Counted from the stretch's first letter, positions 1-41,830 are shown. The stretch is DNA of 48,248 nucleotides from an uncultured Gammaproteobacteria bacterium (GCA_964636045.1 CAZWRH010000001.1:1-48248), one strand, 5' to 3'. The notes: a model not told the origin generated them from the sequence alone. Numbers and translations: made by a program.

Positions 1-327
1 ACTTTCTTTAATAAAGTCGGTAATATTTCCTGCAAGATCAACTGATAGTTGGAATTGTTCATATGTTCTTTCATTCATGAAATATAAAAATTCATGATCT
101 TTATATAAGTATTGAAGTTCAACTGCTTCAATATCAACAGTTTCAACTTCTTCTTGAGATTTAAAAGTATACGAAAAACTTTTTCCAGATTTAATATTTT
201 TTAGATTCGTTCGCATTAAAGCAGATCCTTTTCCAGGAGAATAAAATTCTGTTTTTAAAACAGCAGTGATTTCTCCGTTATATAGGATAAATTCACCTTT
301 TTTTAAATTTCCGGCATTAGTTCTCAT
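1..327 (-). CDS. efp: Elongation factor P, N-terminal part (3' end runs off the window)
   Basis: Reverse-strand translation from the ATG at 327 gives MRTNAGNLKKGEFILYNGEITAVLKTEFYSPGKGSALMRTNLKNIKSGKSF... This has the EF-P domain I pattern, including the PGKG loop. Confidence 0.85.
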   Translation of the reverse strand, partial: MRTNAGNLKKGEFILYNGEITAVLKTEFYSPGKGSALMRTNLKNIKSGKSFSYTFKSQEEVETVDIEAVELQYLYKDHEFLYFMNERTYEQFQLSVDLAGNITDFIKES

Positions 328-2160: not shown

Positions 2161-3390
2161 ATGAGTTTATTTTCAAATGACGATTCTACTTATATTCCAT
2201 TATCAGAAAAAGTTAGACCAAAAACATTTGAAGATTTTTTTGGACAATCAGAATTAGTTGGTAATAATAAAATTCTAAAAAAACTTATTGAGACTGACCA
2301 GATTCCTTCAATGATTTTTTGGGGTCCTCCAGGAGTTGGTAAAACTACCTTAGCTAAAATAATTGCTAAAAAAACTAATGGAAAGTTTGTACAATTTTCA
2401 GCAGTTGTAAATGGAATTAAAGAAGTCAAAGATGTTATTCAAGAAGCAAGTCAAAATAAAAAAATGTTTAGTCAAAAAACCATTTTATTTATTGATGAAA
2501 TACATAGATTTAACAAAGCTCAACAAGACGCGTTTTTGCCTCATATTGAAAATGGTTCAATAATTTTAATTGGTGCAACAACAGAAAATCCTTCTTTTTC
2601 AGTTAATGGAGCACTTCTTTCTCGTTGTAAAGTTTTTGTTTTTAAAGCGTTAGAAAAAAGCGATTTAGAAAAAATAATCATTAATGCTATTTCAAATTTT
2701 TATAAAGATAAAAAAATTAAAATTGAAAAAGATACGATTTCTTATCTTGCTAATATGGCAAATGGAGATGCTAGAGTAGTTTTAAATGCGCTTGAAATTG
2801 CAGTTAATTTATCAAAATCTAAAAATAAAATTGTAATTAATAATGAAAAAATTAAAGAAGCATTGCAAAAAACTCATCTTTTATATGATAAAAAAGGAGA
2901 AGAGCATTATAATTTAATTTCTGCACTCCATAAATCAATGCGTGGATCAGATGCGGATGCTAGTTTATATTGGTTGGTTAGAATGTTAGAAAGCGGAGAA
3001 GATCCTCTTTATATTGCCCGACGTATTGTTAGATTTGCAAGCGAAGATATTGGTATGGCAAATTCGCAAGCTTTGGTTCAGGCAGTTGCAGCTTATGATG
3101 CCTGTCGTTTTATCGGTATGCCGGAGTGTGGAGTAAATTTGGCTCAAGCTGTTGTTTATATGGCAATGTCAAAAAAAAGCAATTTACTTTACAAAGGTTA
3201 TAATAAAGTTAAAGAAGAAGTATTAAACAATCCAAACGATCCTGTTCCACTTCATTTGAGAAATGCTCCAACAAAACTGATGAAGCAATTAGATTATGGT
3301 AAAAATTATAAATATAATCCTGATTATAAAGAACCAGTTAATCAAGACTATCTACCTTCAAAACTAAAGAACAAAAAATTTCTATCTTGA
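2161..3390 (+). CDS. rarA: Replication-associated recombination protein A (RarA/MgsA AAA+ ATPase)
   Basis: Walker A GPPGVGKTTLA, Walker [17 protein letters not shown], and the MgsA C-terminal signature YHYNLISALHKSMRGSDADASLYWLVRMLESGEDPLYIARR. Confidence 0.9.
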   Translation: MSLFSNDDSTYIPLSEKVRPKTFEDFFGQSELVGNNKILKKLIETDQIPSMIFWGPPGVGKTTLAKIIAKKTNGKFVQFSAVVNGIKEVKDVIQEASQNKKMFSQKTILFIDEIHRFNKAQQDAFLPHIENGSIILIGATTENPSFSVNGALLSRCKVFVFKALEKSDLEKIIINAISNFYKDKKIKIEKDTISYLANMANGDARVVLNALEIAVNLSKSKNKIVINNEKIKEALQKTHLLYDKKGEEHYNLISALHKSMRGSDADASLYWLVRMLESGEDPLYIARRIVRFASEDIGMANSQALVQAVAAYDACRFIGMPECGVNLAQAVVYMAMSKKSNLLYKGYNKVKEEVLNNPNDPVPLHLRNAPTKLMKQLDYGKNYKYNPDYKEPVNQDYLPSKLKNKKFLS

Positions 3391-3396
3391 CAAAAA

Positions 3397-3423
3397 TTAG
3401 CACTTATGTTATTCTTTTGCTAA
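3397..3423 (+). promoter_or_regulatory. CIRCE-like HrcA operator (TTAGCACTT-N9-TTTTGCTAA) overlapping the putative hrcA promoter
   Basis: The inverted repeat TTAGCA...TGCTAA has the canonical 9-nt core spacing (consensus TTAGCACTC-N9-GAGTGCTAA). It ends 10 nt before the hrcA ATG. Confidence 0.65.
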
Positions 3424-3433
3424 CAGTAAAAAT

Positions 3434-4174
3434 ATGGATAATTTAACACCTAGACAAACCGAAATTTTAAAAACAATTATCAATGAATATACCTTAACCG
3501 GTGAGCCAGTTGGTAGTGAAATTTTGGATAAAAAATATAACCTTGGAGTGTCGCCAGCAACGGTTAGAAATGAAATGATGGAGCTTGCAAAAAAAGGCTA
3601 TATGAAAAAGGAGCATTTTTCATCAGGTAGAATTCCAACTCCAAAAGCATTTAGATTTTATATCAAAAATTTAATGAAAGAGAAAGAATTATCAACAGCT
3701 GATGAAGTTTCTTATAAAAATGATATTTGGGATTATCGAGATGAAACACATAAATTATTACAAAATGCTACTAAAATATTAGCAGAAAAAACCGATCTTT
3801 TAGCTGTTACAACAACAAATTTAGGTGATATCCATTATTTTGGAGTTGATAATATTTTAGGAACAAAAGAGTTTTTAGATGTAGAGCTAGCAAGACTTTT
3901 TTTTGGAAGACTTGATGAAACAAGATTTTGGAATGAAATTATGAATGATATAAAAAATTTTGAAAATGATATCGCATATTTACTTGGAGATGAAGGTGCT
4001 TCTTTTGAACCGCTTGATAAATGTGCTTATGTTTTTGGTGAATTTGAAGGTGAAAAAATAAAAGGAAAAATTGGAGTTTTAGGTCCACGTAGAATGAAAT
4101 ACGATTACGTTGTTCCAAACGTTAGATATTTCACAAATCTTATTGAAAAAATTATTAAAGAGCAAGGTCTTTAA
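3434..4174 (+). CDS. hrcA: Heat-inducible transcription repressor HrcA (short form, 246 aa)
   Basis: N-terminal winged-helix signature LTPRQTEILKTIINEYTLTGEPVGSEIL...GVSPATVRNEMMELAKKGYM. It sits first in the hrcA-grpE-dnaK-dnaJ gene order. Confidence 0.85.
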   Translation: MDNLTPRQTEILKTIINEYTLTGEPVGSEILDKKYNLGVSPATVRNEMMELAKKGYMKKEHFSSGRIPTPKAFRFYIKNLMKEKELSTADEVSYKNDIWDYRDETHKLLQNATKILAEKTDLLAVTTTNLGDIHYFGVDNILGTKEFLDVELARLFFGRLDETRFWNEIMNDIKNFENDIAYLLGDEGASFEPLDKCAYVFGEFEGEKIKGKIGVLGPRRMKYDYVVPNVRYFTNLIEKIIKEQGL

Positions 4175-30437: not shown

Positions 30438-30460
30438 AATTATTTATTTTATAATAAATC

Positions 30461-33848: not shown

Positions 33849-33853
33849 GTTTT

Positions 33854-33882
33854 TTGACAAAAAACAACGCTTATAGTACAAT
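33854..33882 (+). promoter_or_regulatory. Near-consensus sigma-70 promoter TTGACA-17-TACAAT, 9 nt before the ATG at 33892
   Basis: TTGACA at 33854-33859, a 17-nt spacer, TACAAT at 33877-33882. There is no SD, so a leaderless or ~2-nt-leader mRNA is predicted. Confidence 0.65.
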
Positions 33883-33891
33883 TTTGTTGTA

Positions 33892-34746
33892 ATGAGGCGC
33901 TTAAGACTAACTATAACCCTAAAAGAATCTACAGTTTTAGATGTTGATAAATTAATCGATGGACAAAAACTTAGAAATAGATCTCATGCTATTGAGTATA
34001 TTCTTAACCAAAATTTAAACCAAAAAGTATATAAAGCAATAATTCTTGCTGGAGGTCGAGGAACAAAACTTAGACCATACACTTTAGAAACTCCAAAATC
34101 TCTTCTTTTAATCAAAGGACAACCTATTATTAAATATTTAATTGAGAATTTAAAAAAATCTGGAGTAACTGATATTATGATCTGCGTTGGCCATTTGGGA
34201 AATAAAATAAAGGATTATTTAAAAGATGGAAAAGAATTTGGAGTAAAAATTTCTTATTCAGAAGAAAAAAAACCACTTGGAACTGGTGGTGCAATTTCTA
34301 AGATAAAAGATTTTATTGATGATAAGCCATTTTTAGTTTTACATGGAGATATTCTTATTGATTTAAATTTAAAAGATTTGCTTGAATATCATAGCGAACA
34401 GGGTGGCTCAATTATAGGAACAATTGCATTATCTCAAGTCAATAATTCTTCAATGTGGGGACAGTTTAGAATGCATGGTACAAAAATAGTTAATTTTATT
34501 GATAAAACAAAAAAAGGAGAAGAAGAGAGTCATTTAATTAATACTGGAGTTTATGTTTTTGAAAAGAAAATATTTGATTATTTTCCAACTGGCCAAAAAA
34601 CTTTTTTACTTGAAGATATTATAAAAAATTTAATTAAAGATAGAAAAATTACTGGCTTTGTTTTTGAAGGTCAATGGTTTGATGTTGGAACGCCAGAAAC
34701 TTACGAAGAAGCGATAAAATCTTTTTTATTAAAATCCTCCACCTGA
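33892..34746 (+). CDS. Fusion protein: N-terminal ribbon-helix-helix (CopG/Arc/MetJ-like) domain + sugar-1-phosphate nucleotidyltransferase
   Basis: aa 1-45 read MRRLRLTITLKESTVLDVDKLIDG...NRSHAIEYILNQNL (beta-alpha-alpha RHH pattern). This is followed by ILAGGRGTKLRPYTLETPKSLL (the NTP_transferase G-loop) and ...LGTGGAI...VLHGDIL.... Confidence 0.7.
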   Translation: MRRLRLTITLKESTVLDVDKLIDGQKLRNRSHAIEYILNQNLNQKVYKAIILAGGRGTKLRPYTLETPKSLLLIKGQPIIKYLIENLKKSGVTDIMICVGHLGNKIKDYLKDGKEFGVKISYSEEKKPLGTGGAISKIKDFIDDKPFLVLHGDILIDLNLKDLLEYHSEQGGSIIGTIALSQVNNSSMWGQFRMHGTKIVNFIDKTKKGEEESHLINTGVYVFEKKIFDYFPTGQKTFLLEDIIKNLIKDRKITGFVFEGQWFDVGTPETYEEAIKSFLLKSST

Positions 34747-36050: not shown

Positions 36051-39000
36051 TTATATTTCTTTATTATTAGTGCTTAAACATTTAGGACAAATAATCGTTG
36101 AATTTTTTACTATTTCAGTTTCAAAGTTGTTTTGACATTTTTCACATTGAAATTTCTTTATAATTTTATTTTGCATTTTTTTATCAGAAAATTCAAGCTT
36201 TTCAATATTAAATATAAAATGTTCTCCTTCAAAATCTAAATTTATCTGATCTGATTCTTCAAGTTTTTTTTCAATGATTAGAGTTGATATTGGGTTTTCA
36301 ATCAAATTTTGGATAGTTCTTTTTAGTGGTCTAGCACCATAAATTGGATCAAATCCAACCCTAACAACCTCTTTAATTGCATTCTCTTTATAGTTGAATC
36401 CGATATTTTGTTCTTCAAGTAATTTTTTTAAGCCTTTTAATTGAAGATCAACAATCTTTGTCATGTGTTGATATTTTAATGGTTCAAAAATAATTACTTC
36501 ATCAAATCTATTAATAAGTTCTGGTTTAAAAAATTTTCTAAGTTCCAACATTACTTTGCTTTTCATATTTGAATAAGTATTATTTTCAAGTTCGACTTCT
36601 TTTTTCTTTTTTTGTTCAAGTTCTTTTTCAAGAGGAAAATCTTTTCCAAAATATTCTTTAAGTAAACTCATTTTGAAGTTTTCTTCATTAATTTTTCTTA
36701 TCCAAATCTTTTCTCCTGCGATTATATATTCATTTCCAGATGGATCAAAGGTGTGAATGTCCCAATAATTAAATGGTAAATTCAAATCTTCTTTATTTTT
36801 AAAATAATTTTTTAAAGTACCAGTTTCCCAATCATTTTGACCTTCTTTTCTTTTCCAATATCTATCTTTAAAAGTGATAATTTCATATTCATCCGCAGTA
36901 AATGTATGGGTTTTTAGTTTTGCAGTTGGTAGCTGTTCATCAGGTGAGTCTGGCATAGCATTAACTACAACAGAATCTTTAAAATATTCAATTAGATTAA
37001 TAGTTTTCCATATTTTTGAAGTGGTAGACGATCTTATATATGCAATTTCTTTTAATGTAATTATTTCAATTCCTTTTTGAGAAATTGCGTGAGTGTCAAA
37101 ACCAGAAATTGGAAAGCTATAATTTGAATCTTCAATTTTTTCTCCAGCAAAATAATCATAAAGCATTTTACTTTGCCATGTTGTTGTTTTTGTTGAATCT
37201 AAATTTGGTTGTTTTTCAAAAATTTTATTTATGATTGTTAACATTTCTCTTCCTCGAGGTGAGAAAGTATATGTTGATAAGATAGTTGGTTCTTCAATTT
37301 CAACTTTCCCAGTTTTTAAAATTTCATCTTGAATAAGTGTACTTCCTATATTTGAAGTACAAATAATTACTGTATTTTTAAAAGAAATAGTTCTTCCTTT
37401 ATTATCTGTTAGTCGTCCATCATCAAGTATTTGAAGAAGGATATTAAAAATATCTGGATGAGCTTTTTCTACCTCGTCAAATAAAACAACAGAGTAAGGT
37501 TTTCTTCTAACTGATTCGGTAAGTTTTCCACCTTCATCATATCCAACATATCCAGGAGGTGCACCAAGTAATTTAGCAACTTCATGTTTTTCCATGTATT
37601 CAGTCATATCAAGCCTTACAATAGCTTCTTCCTGGCCAAATAATATTTCTGCTAAGGTTTTAGCAAGTTCTGTTTTACCAACTCCAGTAGGTCCCATGAA
37701 AACAAAACTTCCGATTGGTTTTTGAGTATTTTTAAGTCCAGCACGTCCTCTTCTAACAGCTTGTGCTACTGCTGAAACTGCAACTTCTTGATTAATAAGT
37801 CTTTCATGCATAATATCTTCAAGCTTTGCAAGTTTTTCAGTTTCTGAATCAGAAATTTTTGTGACTGGTATACCAGTCCAACGACTAACAATATCTTTAA
37901 TAATCTCAACACTAACAGATGAAGTTGTCTGACCTTTTTTTATTTTAAATTCTTCTTGTTTTTGATTTAACACTACTTGTAAATCGTCGATTTTTGGTTG
38001 AAGAATTCCAATTTTAACTTTATTTAGTGCTTTTTGAGCTTCTTGAAGTTCTTGTTTATATTCAGAAAGTCTTTCTTCAGTACTTCTTATTTCTTCAGGT
38101 AAAGAAATAAGTGGCAATCTAACAGCTGCTGCAGATTCATCAATTAAATCAACTGCTTTATCAGGTAAAAACCTATCTCCAACATACCTTTTTGATAATT
38201 TGACAGCTGCTTCAAGGGTATCATCAGGAATTTTTACCCGATGATATGATTCGTATTTGTCTCTTGTTGCTTTAAGCATTTTTATTGCTTGCTCTTCGGT
38301 AGGTTCAGGAACTAAAACTGGTTGGAATCGTCTCTCTAATGCTGCATCTTTTTCAATATATTTTCTATATTCTGTTAAAGTTGTTGCTCCAATTATTTGA
38401 AGTTCTCCTCTAGCGAGTGAAGGTTTTAAAAAATTTGAAGCATCAAGCGTTCCTTCAGCACCTGCTCCAGCTCCTACTAAATTATGAATTTCATCTATAA
38501 ATAAAATTATTTTTCCTTTTGCATTTTTAACTTCTTCGATTAATGACTTCATTCTTTCTTCAAATTCACCTCGATGAGAAGTACCGGCTAAAACGCTCAT
38601 TAAATCAAGTTGTAATATTTTTTTATCAAGCAATGATTCTGGAACTTCTTTTTTTACAATTTTTTGAGCTAATCCTTCAACTATAGCTGTTTTTCCAACT
38701 CCAGCTTCTCCAACTAAGACAGGATTATTCTTAGTTCTTCTTGATAGATTGTGAATAACTCTTTCAATAACATCCGATCTTTCAACAACAGGATCAAGAA
38801 GTCCTTGTTGAGCCTTTTGAGTTAAGTCGTTTGTAAATAATTCTAAAACACTTTTTTTCTTTTCTTTTTCTTCACCATTTACTCCTTCTTTTTTACCTGT
38901 AATTTTTTTATTTAATTCTTCTTTTTTTATACCGAGTTTAACCAAGATGTTAGCGGCAACACCTTCTTGTTCTTCAAAAAGTGACAATAAAATATGTTCT

Positions 39001-39569
39001 GGAGAAATAAATTCAAAACCCATTTTTCTAGCAGTAACAAGTGCTTTATCTAAAATTCTTTTAACTCTTGGTGATGGCTGTGGGTTGGTTGGTGCGGTTC
39101 CTTTTTTATAAATTTTATCTAGTTCTTGATCAATTATTTGAGGTTGTATTTTAATATCAACAAAAAATTTATATATTTCTGGATCAGTTAATAGTCCATG
39201 AAGCAAATGCTCAGTATCAACAAAATCATTTTGAAGATCTTTAGCTTTATTTTGAGCTATAACAAATACTTTATTGGATCGTTGTGTAAAATGAGTCATT
39301 AGATCAAGATCTGGTGCTTGAGGTGTTTTTTGAACAGGAGTCTCTTTTTTTTCTGTAGCAACAATTGGAGTCTCTTTTTTTTCTTCTTCTTCAATAAAAT
39401 GTGCTGTATTCAAATTGTTAGTTGATTTTTGAGTTACCTCAGCAACTTCTTCTTTAATAACAACTTTTTCATCTTGTTTGATGTCTGGCGGATTATTAGA
39501 AACAGCTGTTACTGGTTGATTTGGAGATGGGTTTTTAGAATTTGAAAACATATCAAAAATACCTGCCAT
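36051..39569 (-). CDS. Atypical ClpB/ClpC-family double-ring AAA+ unfoldase: disordered N-tail, Clp_N repeats, D1, short M-domain, D2 with a ~240-aa four-repeat insertion, C-terminal zinc ribbon
   Basis: Clp_N repeats are present (...TEHLLHGLL..., ...[10 protein letters not shown]...). D1 has Walker A GEAGVGKT and Walker [10 protein letters not shown]2 has [37 protein letters not shown] and the pore loop GYVGY, plus GARPLKR sensor-2. The preferred start is ATG 39569 (MAGIFDMF...). The track start at 39605 is a TTG that coincides with a TTGACA -35 box. Confidence 0.9.
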
Positions 39570-39576
39570 AATTTTC

Positions 39577-39605
39577 ATTATTAAAAAAATAAAAACATTT
39601 GTCAA
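39577..39605 (-). promoter_or_regulatory. Promoter TTGACA-17-AATAAT, 7 nt before the AAA+ gene ATG (39569)
   Basis: On the minus strand, TTGACA lies at 39605..39600, followed by a 17-nt spacer. AATAAT lies at 39582..39577, followed by gaaaatt and the ATG. Confidence 0.55.
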
Positions 39606-39627
39606 TTAAGTAGTTTTTATTTATTAT
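39599..39627 (+). promoter_or_regulatory. Promoter TTGTCA-17-TATTAT, 7 nt before the ATG at 39635
   Basis: On the plus strand, TTGTCA lies at 39599-39604, followed by a 17-nt spacer. TATTAT lies at 39622-39627, followed by tagtaat and the ATG. Confidence 0.55.
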
Positions 39628-39634
39628 TAGTAAT

Positions 39635-40375
39635 ATGAAATTTAGTAGGGGAATAATAATTTTTATATTTGTTTTTTTATTTTTAACTAAAATTTCAAAT
39701 CCAGTTTTTGCAGAAACTTCTTCTTTGCAAAACTCAAATTCTGCAAGTTATTTTGATATTTTTTATGATTTAATAAAAAAACTTTTAACTTTTTCTACAG
39801 ATGACTTAAATAGCGAAACTACCACGTCAAGTTCTGTGGGAGGTGGTGGAGCAGGAGCTTCTCGAAGCTGGGATCCATTACCAAATATTGATGGAAATAC
39901 TTTGGAGCAAAACAAAGCATTAGCTGAACAAATTTTGGCAAATTCTAATATAGATTTAAATTGTTATACTGATAGTTGTGGTCATAGTTCAGCTGAAGTA
40001 ATTTCTTCTTTAAAAAATGGTCAAGCACCTGTTATTTGTTCTGGGGGTTGTTCAAATTGTGCTGCTGGAGGACCTTCTGGATCAACAACAATGAATCCAA
40101 AAGTTTTGCAAGGAATTTTAGAAGTTGGTAAAACTGATTCTATTTGTATAACTGCTTTATCTAATGGAGTTCATAGTGTTGGAAGTACTCATTATGATGG
40201 AAATGCAGTTGATATTGATGCAGGAGGAAAAAGCGCTGGAGATTTGCAAAGAATTAGAAATCAATTACAAAGTTATTGTGGTTGGGCTATTTGTGAGCCT
40301 CCAGGAGGAGGATCTGATCCAAGTTGTTCAACTGCAAGTCATATTCATTGGACTTGTGCACCTGGTGGTGATTAA
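39635..40375 (+). CDS. Secreted Cys-rich LAS/M15-type peptidoglycan peptidase (VanY/D-Ala-D-Ala carboxypeptidase-like fold)
   Basis: Signal peptide ending ...NPVFA|ET, the S-x-H-x-x-G-x-A-x-D motif as STHYDGNAVD, a downstream H-x-H (SHIHW), and 10 Cys. Confidence 0.6.
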   Translation: MKFSRGIIIFIFVFLFLTKISNPVFAETSSLQNSNSASYFDIFYDLIKKLLTFSTDDLNSETTTSSSVGGGGAGASRSWDPLPNIDGNTLEQNKALAEQILANSNIDLNCYTDSCGHSSAEVISSLKNGQAPVICSGGCSNCAAGGPSGSTTMNPKVLQGILEVGKTDSICITALSNGVHSVGSTHYDGNAVDIDAGGKSAGDLQRIRNQLQSYCGWAICEPPGGGSDPSCSTASHIHWTCAPGGD

Positions 40376-40380
40376 TTTTT

Positions 40381-41223
40381 ATGAGAAAAATTTTGTTTAT
40401 TTTAATTATATTTGCTTCAATTTTGGGAAATTCTGTTTTTGCTGTAGAAACAAGCAATGGTCAAGTGAATCAAAATGCTGTTGGAGTTTTTATAGATTTT
40501 TTAAATAAATTTCTAAATGCTCCTGCTGAAAATGATGATGTTGGTTCAAATTCACAAAATAAAACAAATGGATTGTCTCCTTTTGCAGGATCTGTTACTG
40601 ATATTAATCAATTAATATCTCCAGACACAATGTCTCCTGAGGCGGCAAATATGATGGGTGCAGTTGCAGGGTGTATTAATAATAGAGCCGCTTATGAAGA
40701 GGCAAGTAGATATACAGGGGCACCTTGGCAAGTTTTAGCAGGTATTCACTATCGAGAAGGAAATTGTAATCCAAATGCTTCTTTAGTATCAGGGCGGCCA
40801 ATCGGAGAAGCGGAGCCTGACATGGAGTATAACTGTTCGTCTGCAATTGAAAATGGTTTAGCTATTCCAGTTAATGGTGGTTGTGGCTTTGCCACTTTAA
40901 CACAAAGTGCAATTTATGCGGCTAGACATTTAATTGATAAGATTGGTAAAGTTCCTCAATCTTTTGAAGAGTTAGGAACTGCATTATCAAGATATAATGG
41001 AGGAGGAAATTCTAATTGTGGGAAGACGCCTTATCCATATTGTCCTCCAGCTTTTTCTGGTGATGACGATCCATATCCAATGGCGCTTTTGGATGAAAAA
41101 CACAAAACAATGTACGTTATATATTGTGAAGATGGGGTAGCAAATACTGCCGGATGTCCAAGAGTTGATCAAAATCCTGGAGTATTAACAGCTATTTCTC
41201 TTATATCATTTGCAACAAAATAA
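40381..41223 (+). CDS. Secreted Cys-rich lysozyme-like / SLT-like lytic transglycosylase candidate
   Basis: Signal peptide ending ...NSVFA|VE; WQVLAGIHYREGNCNPNAS (an SLT-like catalytic-Glu context) and ...AARHLIDKIG...LGTALSRYNGGG (an SLT-like AYNAG region). Confidence 0.45.
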   Translation: MRKILFILIIFASILGNSVFAVETSNGQVNQNAVGVFIDFLNKFLNAPAENDDVGSNSQNKTNGLSPFAGSVTDINQLISPDTMSPEAANMMGAVAGCINNRAAYEEASRYTGAPWQVLAGIHYREGNCNPNASLVSGRPIGEAEPDMEYNCSSAIENGLAIPVNGGCGFATLTQSAIYAARHLIDKIGKVPQSFEELGTALSRYNGGGNSNCGKTPYPYCPPAFSGDDDPYPMALLDEKHKTMYVIYCEDGVANTAGCPRVDQNPGVLTAISLISFATK

Positions 41224-41224
41224 A

Positions 41225-41830
41225 ATGGAAAAACTAGATGATAAAAAAGTTTTTATAATCTTTTCAGTATCAATTGTTTTAATGATGCTTTTAATTCTAT
41301 TTTTTTCTATTAATACTAAAAAAATAAATGTTGCTAACAATGAAGAGTCTCAATCTGAATCAAATGTAAAAAAAGACTATTTAGCCGAACAAAGAAATAA
41401 AAACGCTAATTTACCAATGCCTATAAAAAATATTCCTACACTTTCAGTAAGTGAAGGAAAAGGAGTTGATATAGCCTCAGATGAAGTTGTTTCTTCGAAA
41501 ACAGAAATTTCTAAATTATCAGAAAAATTACCTTTTAATAAAAAAATTACTACTTCTAAAGGATTATCTATTGAGATTATGATTCCAGAACAAAAGCTTC
41601 AAGATAATGATTTTTCATTGACAGTTTATATATTTGGTATTAATTATGAGGTTGAAAATGATTCTCGAGATTACCTTATTCAAAAAGTTTCTTTTCAAGA
41701 AGGAGCAAAAGAAGTGTTTAGTTTTTTAAAGCAAAATAATATTGACGTTACAAACTTAATAGTAAGATGGGGAGATAGAAAAAAAATTCGGGATAAAGCA
41801 GAGAATTGGCTTTTAGAGAGCGTAATGTAA
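41225..41830 (+). CDS. Membrane-anchored hypothetical protein (N-terminal TM, extracytoplasmic domain)
   Basis: ORF with an ATG at 41225 (MEKLDDKKVFIIFSVSIVLMMLLILFF...). The track start at 41210 is a TTG inside the previous gene. Confidence 0.55.
   Translation: MEKLDDKKVFIIFSVSIVLMMLLILFFSINTKKINVANNEESQSESNVKKDYLAEQRNKNANLPMPIKNIPTLSVSEGKGVDIASDEVVSSKTEISKLSEKLPFNKKITTSKGLSIEIMIPEQKLQDNDFSLTVYIFGINYEVENDSRDYLIQKVSFQEGAKEVFSFLKQNNIDVTNLIVRWGDRKKIRDKAENWLLESVM

Follow-up and report, generated by a model that had tools for sequence, protein, structure and literature searches.

Predicted leaderless divergent promoters with a common palindromic -35 region, placed between the genes of a Clp-type unfoldase and a secreted protein in a patescibacterial genome

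How can two divergent genes both be transcribed from an intergenic spacer of only 65 nt? This question is raised by a stretch of DNA of 48,248 nucleotides (GCA_964636045.1 CAZWRH010000001.1:1-48248, hereafter the window), in which the gene of a Clp-type unfoldase and the gene of a secreted protein lie back to back on either side of positions 39570-39634. Our analysis indicates that this spacer probably holds two back-to-back promoters of the ordinary sigma-70 type, in which a single -35 box is read in both directions and from which both messages start at the start codon itself. The window belongs to a genome of 935 kb (97 contigs, 30% G+C) whose closest named relatives are metagenome-assembled genomes (MAGs) of Candidatus Roizmanbacteria and Woesebacteria. 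An alternative genetic code was considered for this genome and ruled out, as translation table 11 fits. The ultra-small Patescibacteria possess few regulators and cannot be grown alone, and promoter architecture read from the sequence is therefore one of the few handles on their gene control.

On the plus strand, the hexamer TTGTCA (39599-39604) is followed by 17 nt, the hexamer TATTAT (39622-39627), a further 7 nt and the ATG at 39635. On the minus strand, TTGACA (39605..39600) is followed by 17 nt, AATAAT (39582..39577), 7 nt and the ATG at 39569 (codon 39567-39569). The two -35 hexamers overlap by 5 bp and both lie within a 7-bp palindrome (39599-39605), read as TTGTCAA on one strand and TTGACAA on the other, the centre of which, at 39602, is 33 nt away from either ATG. 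The two -10 hexamers are separated by 39 bp and the predicted transcription starts by 66 bp, and the upstream zone of each promoter contains the spacer and the -10 hexamer of the other. These positions had been given in a preliminary description of the locus, and all of them, on both strands, proved exact when the sequence from 39300 to 39900 was read again. The mirror symmetry proposed in that description holds for the -35 hexamers, the -10 hexamers and the start codons, and it ends there, the longer inverted repeats of the region being centred 2.5-4.5 nt away from 39602. Two candidates for an extended symmetry, inverted repeats of 25 nt (72%) and 13 nt (92%), were rejected, with centres at 39606.5 and 39604.5, respectively. 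As the longer repeats are off-centre and match the plus-strand ATG with an ATG at 39578 that is not a start codon, they are taken to be AT-rich background. The arms of the 13-nt repeat (92% complementary, 16 nt apart) lie at 39584-39596 and 39613-39625 and flank the -35 palindrome, with a centre 2.5 nt away from that of the palindrome. This repeat, too, is probably background and corresponds to the T-rich promoter spacers of the two strands.

With regard to the minus-strand element, TTGACA-17-AATAAT agrees with the sigma-70 consensus at 11 of 12 positions, and its spacer falls within the range of 16-18 nt. Loci orthologous to the Clp gene were gathered in three sets, comprising 24 genomes of the family and order, 13 named MAGs and 98 further genomes of the order; the order-wide counts given below rest on the 95 readable loci of the last set. 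Upstream of the Clp orthologue, a -35 hexamer, a spacer of 17 or 18 nt, a -10 hexamer, a gap of 5-10 nt and an ATG are kept in 93 of these 95 loci. Among the 93, the -35 hexamer is TTGACA in 68, TTGACT in 15 and TTGCAA in 9, and the spacer measures 17 nt in 84 loci and 18 nt in 9. The -10 hexamer is CATAAT in 65 loci, TATAAT in 10, AATAAT in 8 and GATAAT in 6, and the gap between it and the ATG is most often 6 nt (66 loci) or 7 nt (15 loci). Directly after the -35 hexamer stands A in 53 loci, T in 37 and either G or C in the remaining 3. The sequence, the promoter scan and the orthologous loci together give very good support to the view that the minus-strand element is a real promoter and that it is retained throughout the order. 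Some genera display a further feature at the same position: in L120, L146 and L155 (TTGACAATTGTCAA) as well as in L118 and L147 (TTGACATTTGTCAA), the Clp -35 hexamer lies within a perfect or near-perfect 14-bp palindrome, which puts a second TTGACA on the opposite strand inside the Clp spacer. These palindromes could represent a second promoter or an operator.

The gene driven by this promoter (36051-39569, minus strand) encodes a protein with the Pfam domains Clp_N, AAA, AAA_2 and ClpB_D2-small, which identify it as a double-ring unfoldase of the ClpC/ClpB type. The N-termini of the orthologues are conserved in the 93 loci as well and are of the MxxFFDFIKK type; the relatives begin with MAG[IFV]FDFIKK, with which MAGIFDMF of the window aligns. 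In addition, the ATG contained in the 'CATAATG' of the relatives is often out of frame with the Clp gene, and in many of them the frame is closed upstream. As judged from the conserved peptide and from these out-of-frame ATGs, the Clp start can be regarded as fixed at the ATG at 39569, and is not the ATG at 39578, which lies in the -10 box. The TTG at 39605 had been attributed to the -35 box rather than to a start codon, and this attribution is borne out by the relatives, which begin at the ATG equivalent to 39569. Downstream of the decapeptide (MAGFFDFIKK type), the orthologues of L107-L204 and the protein of the window (39270-39569) carry a low-complexity, poorly conserved linker of 42-279 residues, which is followed by Clp_N.

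Both genes had been predicted to be leaderless, and this prediction is consistent with the distances between -10 boxes and start codons across the genome. The anti-Shine-Dalgarno sequence CCUCC is retained in the 16S rRNA. Genome-wide, no enrichment of G was found 6-12 nt before the first ATGs, and the 5-mer core of the Shine-Dalgarno (SD) sequence is present at 3.4% of the genes, compared with 0.9-1.6% in control windows. Neither the Clp gene nor the plus-strand gene has an SD sequence. This had been put forward as a sign of leaderlessness; since SD sequences are nearly absent from the whole genome, their absence says nothing special about these two genes, and the argument is uninformative. 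The positions of TTGACA peak at 35-43 nt before the first ATGs, and 6-10 nt lie between the end of a strict -35/-10 match and the ATG. An exact TATAAT is found at gaps of 6, 7 and 8 nt from the ATG in 32, 19 and 15 cases, respectively, against a background of 1-2. A -10 hexamer with at least 5 of 6 matches at a gap of 6-9 nt precedes 188 of the 826 genes, which is about four times the frequency at control positions, and the 7-nt gap observed on both sides of the spacer is the second most common gap class. One further example of the pattern is located at 33850-33895 of the window. On these counts, genes at the head of a transcription unit appear, as a rule, to be initiated without a leader in this genome. 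The window also encodes a housekeeping (primary) sigma factor with region 4 (PF04545, 70.9 bits) in an open frame of 368 amino acids (aa). A literature search for papers on leaderless mRNAs in the Candidate Phyla Radiation (Patescibacteria) returned nothing relevant.

The plus-strand unit begins with a gene (39635-40375) for a Cys-rich protein of 246 aa that carries a signal peptide (MKFSRGIIIFIFVFLFLTKISNPVFA). The ATG at 39635, which is also the predicted transcription start, is the only possible start of this open reading frame: the frame is closed by a stop 8 codons upstream, and it offers no alternative start codon. Given this sole start, any promoter situated in non-coding DNA has to fall within 65 bp, the entire length of the non-coding DNA upstream of the gene. 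The proposed promoter, TTGTCA-17-TATTAT, matches the consensus at 10 of 12 positions, i.e., 5 of 6 in each hexamer, with A2 and T6 of the -10 hexamer present, and its spacer likewise falls within 16-18 nt. The -35 hexamer is proposed on the basis of the sequence, the promoter scan and analogous loci in relatives, and the -10 hexamer on that of the sequence and the scan; the latter hexamer is weak on its own.

How much weight such a match deserves was estimated with a scan of 8 kb for the sigma-70 consensus, in which sites are scored out of 12. The minus-strand site is the top site (11/12), and the plus-strand site is among the 10/12 sites that are next in rank. The scan yielded 41 promoter-like sites versus 40.2 in shuffled sequences; at a local G+C content of 27-30%, the total is thus at the level of the shuffles, and a single match is not evidence by itself. 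When the 65-nt spacer was shuffled with its dinucleotides preserved, a plus-strand match that scored 10/12 or more and lay at the right distance arose in 0.56% of the shuffles, a minus-strand match that scored 11/12 or more in 0.1%, and both jointly in none of 20,000. Once the Clp promoter is accepted as real, the plus-strand half becomes less striking, and the non-trivial part of the arrangement is the distance to the plus-strand ATG.

This distance, however, is not confined to the window. Conservation in related genomes had been suggested as a check in the preliminary description, and the layout with a shared -35 region does recur there, together with other partner genes. A divergent gene at an ATG-to-ATG distance of 62-67 nt is present in the window, in L003, which represents another genus of the same family, and, within the sister family f3, in every one of the 8 readable genomes. 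The loci with a shared -35 region other than the window (class C) are nine in number (L003, L019-L025 and L206), and on the partner strand they read TTGTCA-16..18-TAnnnT-6..9-ATG. The reverse TTG lies 36 nt from the partner ATG in the window and 34-39 nt from it in the nine other loci. The partner is a secreted protein of 273 aa in L003 and, in f3, a protein of about 100 aa resembling the pilins of type IV secretion systems (T4SS; PF18895, 23.9 bits, just below the cut-off); the three partner proteins of the window, L003 and f3 are mutually unrelated. In an alignment of the nine class-C loci, the invariant columns are the TA of the partner, TTGACAA, one T of the spacer, ATAAT and the A of the Clp start codon, the last of which is out of register in the three longest rows. 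The base that follows the Clp -35 hexamer is A in 9 of 9 class-C loci versus 53 of 93 others (Fisher 0.009, uncorrected for phylogeny). A suitable -10 hexamer on the partner side arises in 8-34% of shuffles per locus, with a product of 1.4e-7, the true significance of which is lowered by the kinship of the f3 loci. The recurrence of the layout with unrelated partner genes raises confidence in the plus-strand half of the arrangement, which we consider moderately supported by these comparisons.

A shared -35 region is only one of the ways in which genes are packed against the Clp promoter. Across the order, a divergent gene almost always abuts this promoter, and its product is secreted or anchored in the membrane, examples being Peptidase_C39_2-like, CHAP and pilin-like proteins. 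At ATG-to-ATG distances of 9-13 nt, the start codon of the partner is the CAT of the Clp -10 hexamer or lies beside it, the T-rich promoter spacer encodes the Lys-rich start of the signal peptide, and the -35 hexamer encodes 'VN' or 'IA'. At 34-47 nt, the partner ATG is located just upstream of the -35 hexamer; at 62-67 nt, the -35 region is common to both genes; and above 70 nt, the promoters are separate. In L111, L117, L123, L108, L128, L141 and about 20 more loci, the first 10 or so codons of the partner lie on the Clp core promoter, the signal-peptide start MKKK... being derived from the T-rich spacer and Val-Asn (GTCAAC) or Ile-Ala (TTGCAA) from the -35 hexamer. A partner start at the Clp -10 hexamer may explain the conserved C of CATAAT, and in such overlapping loci the partner's own -10 hexamer would cover the Clp start codon. 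The gene that abuts Clp belongs, in most relatives, to a single large cluster (C39_2-like) of proteins that are either secreted or anchored, and it is the second gene of the plus-strand unit that is linked to this cluster in the window: the protein encoded at 40381-41223 matches the partner protein of L194 (E 1e-29). This gene and a third one (41210-41830) are tightly packed behind the first, so that genes 2 and 3 together span 40381-41830 on the plus strand. No Pfam family was found for gene 1 or for the gene that follows it.

Within the genome of the window itself, divergent pairs cluster at ATG-to-ATG distances of approximately 21-25, 38-41, 60-70 and 78-85 nt. The pairs at about 21-25 nt have overlapping palindromic -10 boxes (ATTATATAAT) and are leaderless on both sides. 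Those at 78-85 nt (13/93) have separate -35 boxes that are about 6-12 bp apart (e.g., TGTCAAgtatatTTGACA). Divergent pairs are found, for example, at 30438-30460 of the window and at G000 C2:22905-22925, C24:9955-9976 and C37:995-1075. No strong shared -35 region was detected elsewhere in the genome; two similar pairs, on C12 (68 nt) and C15 (70 nt), have weak -35 hexamers.

Several of these and other observations weigh against the use of the -35 box in both directions. TTGTCA arises automatically on the opposite strand wherever TTGACA is followed by A, a combination that occurs in 57% of the Clp promoters of the order (53/93), whatever the neighbour. A -10-like hexamer that is rightly placed for the plus-strand gene is obtained in 34% of shuffles of the 30 intervening nt. 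Genome-wide, a -35 hexamer with at least 5 of 6 matches accompanies only 16 of the 188 leaderless promoters, most of which have a weak one or none, G stands at the corresponding -35 position in 27%, and TTGTCA contributes only 3 sites to the peak at -40..-36; given such weak -35 regions, TTGTCA is possibly unused by the plus-strand promoter. For the plus-strand gene, an orphan, neither 223 genomes of the order nor metagenome contigs yielded a homologue, so that the comparison of its promoter half was confined to analogous loci with other partner genes. The f3 loci are related by descent and do not amount to 8 independent cases. Finally, relatives keep the Clp pairing with differing overlaps (9-13, 34-47 and >70 nt), which makes the shared -35 region one packing solution among several and not a required one. 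The low -35 information of the genome, the scant enrichment of TTGTCA, the frequency of TTGACAA irrespective of the neighbour and the ease with which a -10-like hexamer arises are all points in favour of an explanation in which only the Clp promoter uses the -35 box, whereas the plus-strand unit is driven by TATTAT alone, still without a leader, or from another start, the TTGTCA being accidental. Nothing would then be functionally shared, and competition would be limited to the general overlap of footprints. This explanation does not account for the distance of 36 nt between the TTG and the ATG, which is matched by 34-39 nt in nine loci with two other, unrelated partner genes, nor for the A that creates the reverse TTG in all class-C loci; moreover, the TATTAT sequence is not preceded by the TG of an extended -10 element. 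We judge it rather unlikely.

A palindrome that is central between two divergent units could also be the operator of a dimeric regulator acting on both, for instance a Clp or heat-shock repressor, in which case its likeness to a promoter would be secondary. The flanking 13-nt inverted repeat, with its 92% complementarity, and the 14-bp palindrome TTGACAATTGTCAA of some relatives fit this idea. Nevertheless, the palindrome of the window is only 7 bp long, and its centre and that of the flanking repeat differ by 2.5 nt. The seventh base varies among the 93 loci (A 53, T 37, G or C 3), which leaves TTGAC[AT], a -35 box, as the conserved unit, and the spacing to the -10 hexamer and to the ATG obeys promoter rules in 93 of 95 loci. 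An operator seems very improbable. A CtsR operator and an operator of the CIRCE type (controlling inverted repeat of chaperone expression) were rejected as candidates: there is no CtsR gene, and by eye the spacer 39570-39634 contains neither TTAGCACTC-N9-GAGTGCTAA nor a GTCAAA direct repeat. An hrcA gene is present elsewhere in the window (3433-4174); TTGACA precedes its ATG by 47 nt, with a degenerate CIRCE-like inverted repeat (TTAGCACTT-N9-TTTTGCTAA) in between (3380-3436), which suggests that hrcA is autoregulated. It is also conceivable that the Clp gene starts upstream, at the ATG at 39578 or the TTG at 39605, and is translated from a leadered mRNA made at a farther promoter, the promoter-like elements then being coding sequence. 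The frame is indeed open back to 39605 and the ATG at 39578 is in frame, but the start shared by the relatives together with its conserved peptide, the frequently out-of-frame ATG of 'CATAATG' and the upstream closure of the frame in many relatives all speak against it, and a promoter beyond 39605 would fall inside the plus-strand gene. Such an upstream start is scarcely credible.

The reading we favour remains that of two ordinary promoters with one -35 box read both ways. In both, the spacer measures 17 nt and 7 nt separate the -10 hexamer from the ATG, which would put the 5' end of either mRNA on the A of its start codon or one base away at most, and both mRNAs would be translated without a leader. 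The minus-strand promoter is ancient and nearly unchanged throughout the order. The plus-strand promoter, on the other hand, would be lineage-specific, a newly placed secreted-protein unit being served by the reversed Clp -35 region (TTGACAA read as TTGTCAA) and by a local TATTAT. Region 4 of the sigma factors of two polymerases would be unable to bind the same 5 bp in opposite orientations. As the -35 region is shared and each polymerase would also cover the spacer and the -10 hexamer of the other promoter, only one polymerase could be bound at a time. The outcome, whether interference, a fixed ratio or a positive coupling by supercoiling, would depend on promoter occupancy.

A more ambitious proposal is that the shared -35 region has been selected as a partitioning device, 'one polymerase, two directions', which fixes the ratio or the anticorrelation of a cytoplasmic motor versus its exported partners. 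If true, this would constitute a regulator-free control circuit for a lineage that is very poor in transcription factors. It would also cover the order-wide promoter-to-promoter pairing of the Clp operon with the gene of a secreted wall-active enzyme or a T4SS-pilin-like protein, where the overlap consists either of a shared -35 region or of partner coding sequence that lies on the Clp core promoter. We consider selection for such a device distinctly improbable. Apart from this, the locus shows a standard sigma-70 promoter, predicted to start its message without a leader, that is nearly unchanged throughout a whole order and onto which neighbouring genes are packed in several distinct arrangements, one of them probably with the -35 region reused in reverse. 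It also provides a rule for the annotation of start codons in these genomes, namely a -10 box 6-8 nt upstream and no SD sequence, and offers a simple system in which a regulatory effect of polymerase competition at a common -35 region could be sought.

With regard to known systems, a leaderless architecture in which the -10 box lies 6-9 nt before the start codon is found in Actinobacteria, e.g., Mycobacterium tuberculosis, and in Deinococcus-Thermus. An extensive leaderless transcriptome of M. tuberculosis is reportedly named in the very title of the work of Cortes and co-workers from 2013. The genes considered here resemble the leaderless genes of these groups in that a TAnnnT ends 6-8 nt before the ATG, no SD sequence is present and the pattern extends genome-wide to the heads of units; in contrast to Actinobacteria and Deinococcus-Thermus, the lineage is that of Roizmanbacteria (Patescibacteria).

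A second point of comparison is provided by the bidirectional promoters with a shared pseudo-symmetric -10 element described by Warman, Grainger and co-workers (PMC12825309, PMC10268837). In these promoters, polymerase competition matters only at high occupancy, and separate divergent promoters are explicitly not counted as bidirectional (PMC12825309). The present arrangement is similar in that the symmetry of one element would serve both directions, one polymerase would exclude the other, and such overlaps are common in compact, AT-rich DNA; the same genome also contains pairs that share a -10 element (ATTATATAAT, ATGs 21-25 nt apart). In the -10-sharing class, however, the -35 elements lie on either side of the shared -10, whereas here the -35 is the shared element and the -10 hexamers are 39 bp apart. 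The locus therefore lacks the single shared -10 element and the close starts by which Warman, Grainger and co-workers define bidirectional promoters.

The closest counterparts are overlapping back-to-back divergent sigma-70 promoters, as in mtrR/mtrCDE of Neisseria gonorrhoeae, for which it has been proposed that polymerase shifts between the promoters when one -35 element is altered (bioRxiv 10.1101/448712). Other divergent pairs are fepA/fes and ilvY/ilvC of Escherichia coli; coupling by supercoiling has been documented and mutual stimulation is possible, and a pair with starts 64 bp apart has been termed 'partly overlapping' (PMC4469952). With predicted divergent, non-overlapping transcripts and promoter elements that overlap by 5 bp, the locus falls into this class, and like mtrR/mtrCDE, fepA/fes and ilvY/ilvC it has divergent promoters with -35 regions on the same or neighbouring base pairs. 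Those pairs are leadered and asymmetric and usually have a dedicated regulator in between, whereas both sides are predicted to be leaderless here. Unlike in the mtrR/mtrCDE class, the two hexamers form one palindrome, the starts are equidistant from it (66 bp apart) and no regulator is evident. The locus presents, in compact form, a variation on promoter arrangements already known and not a new mechanism; it is set apart from the known classes by predicted leaderless starts on both sides, by its symmetry about a palindromic -35 region and by its recurrence in an order of Patescibacteria.

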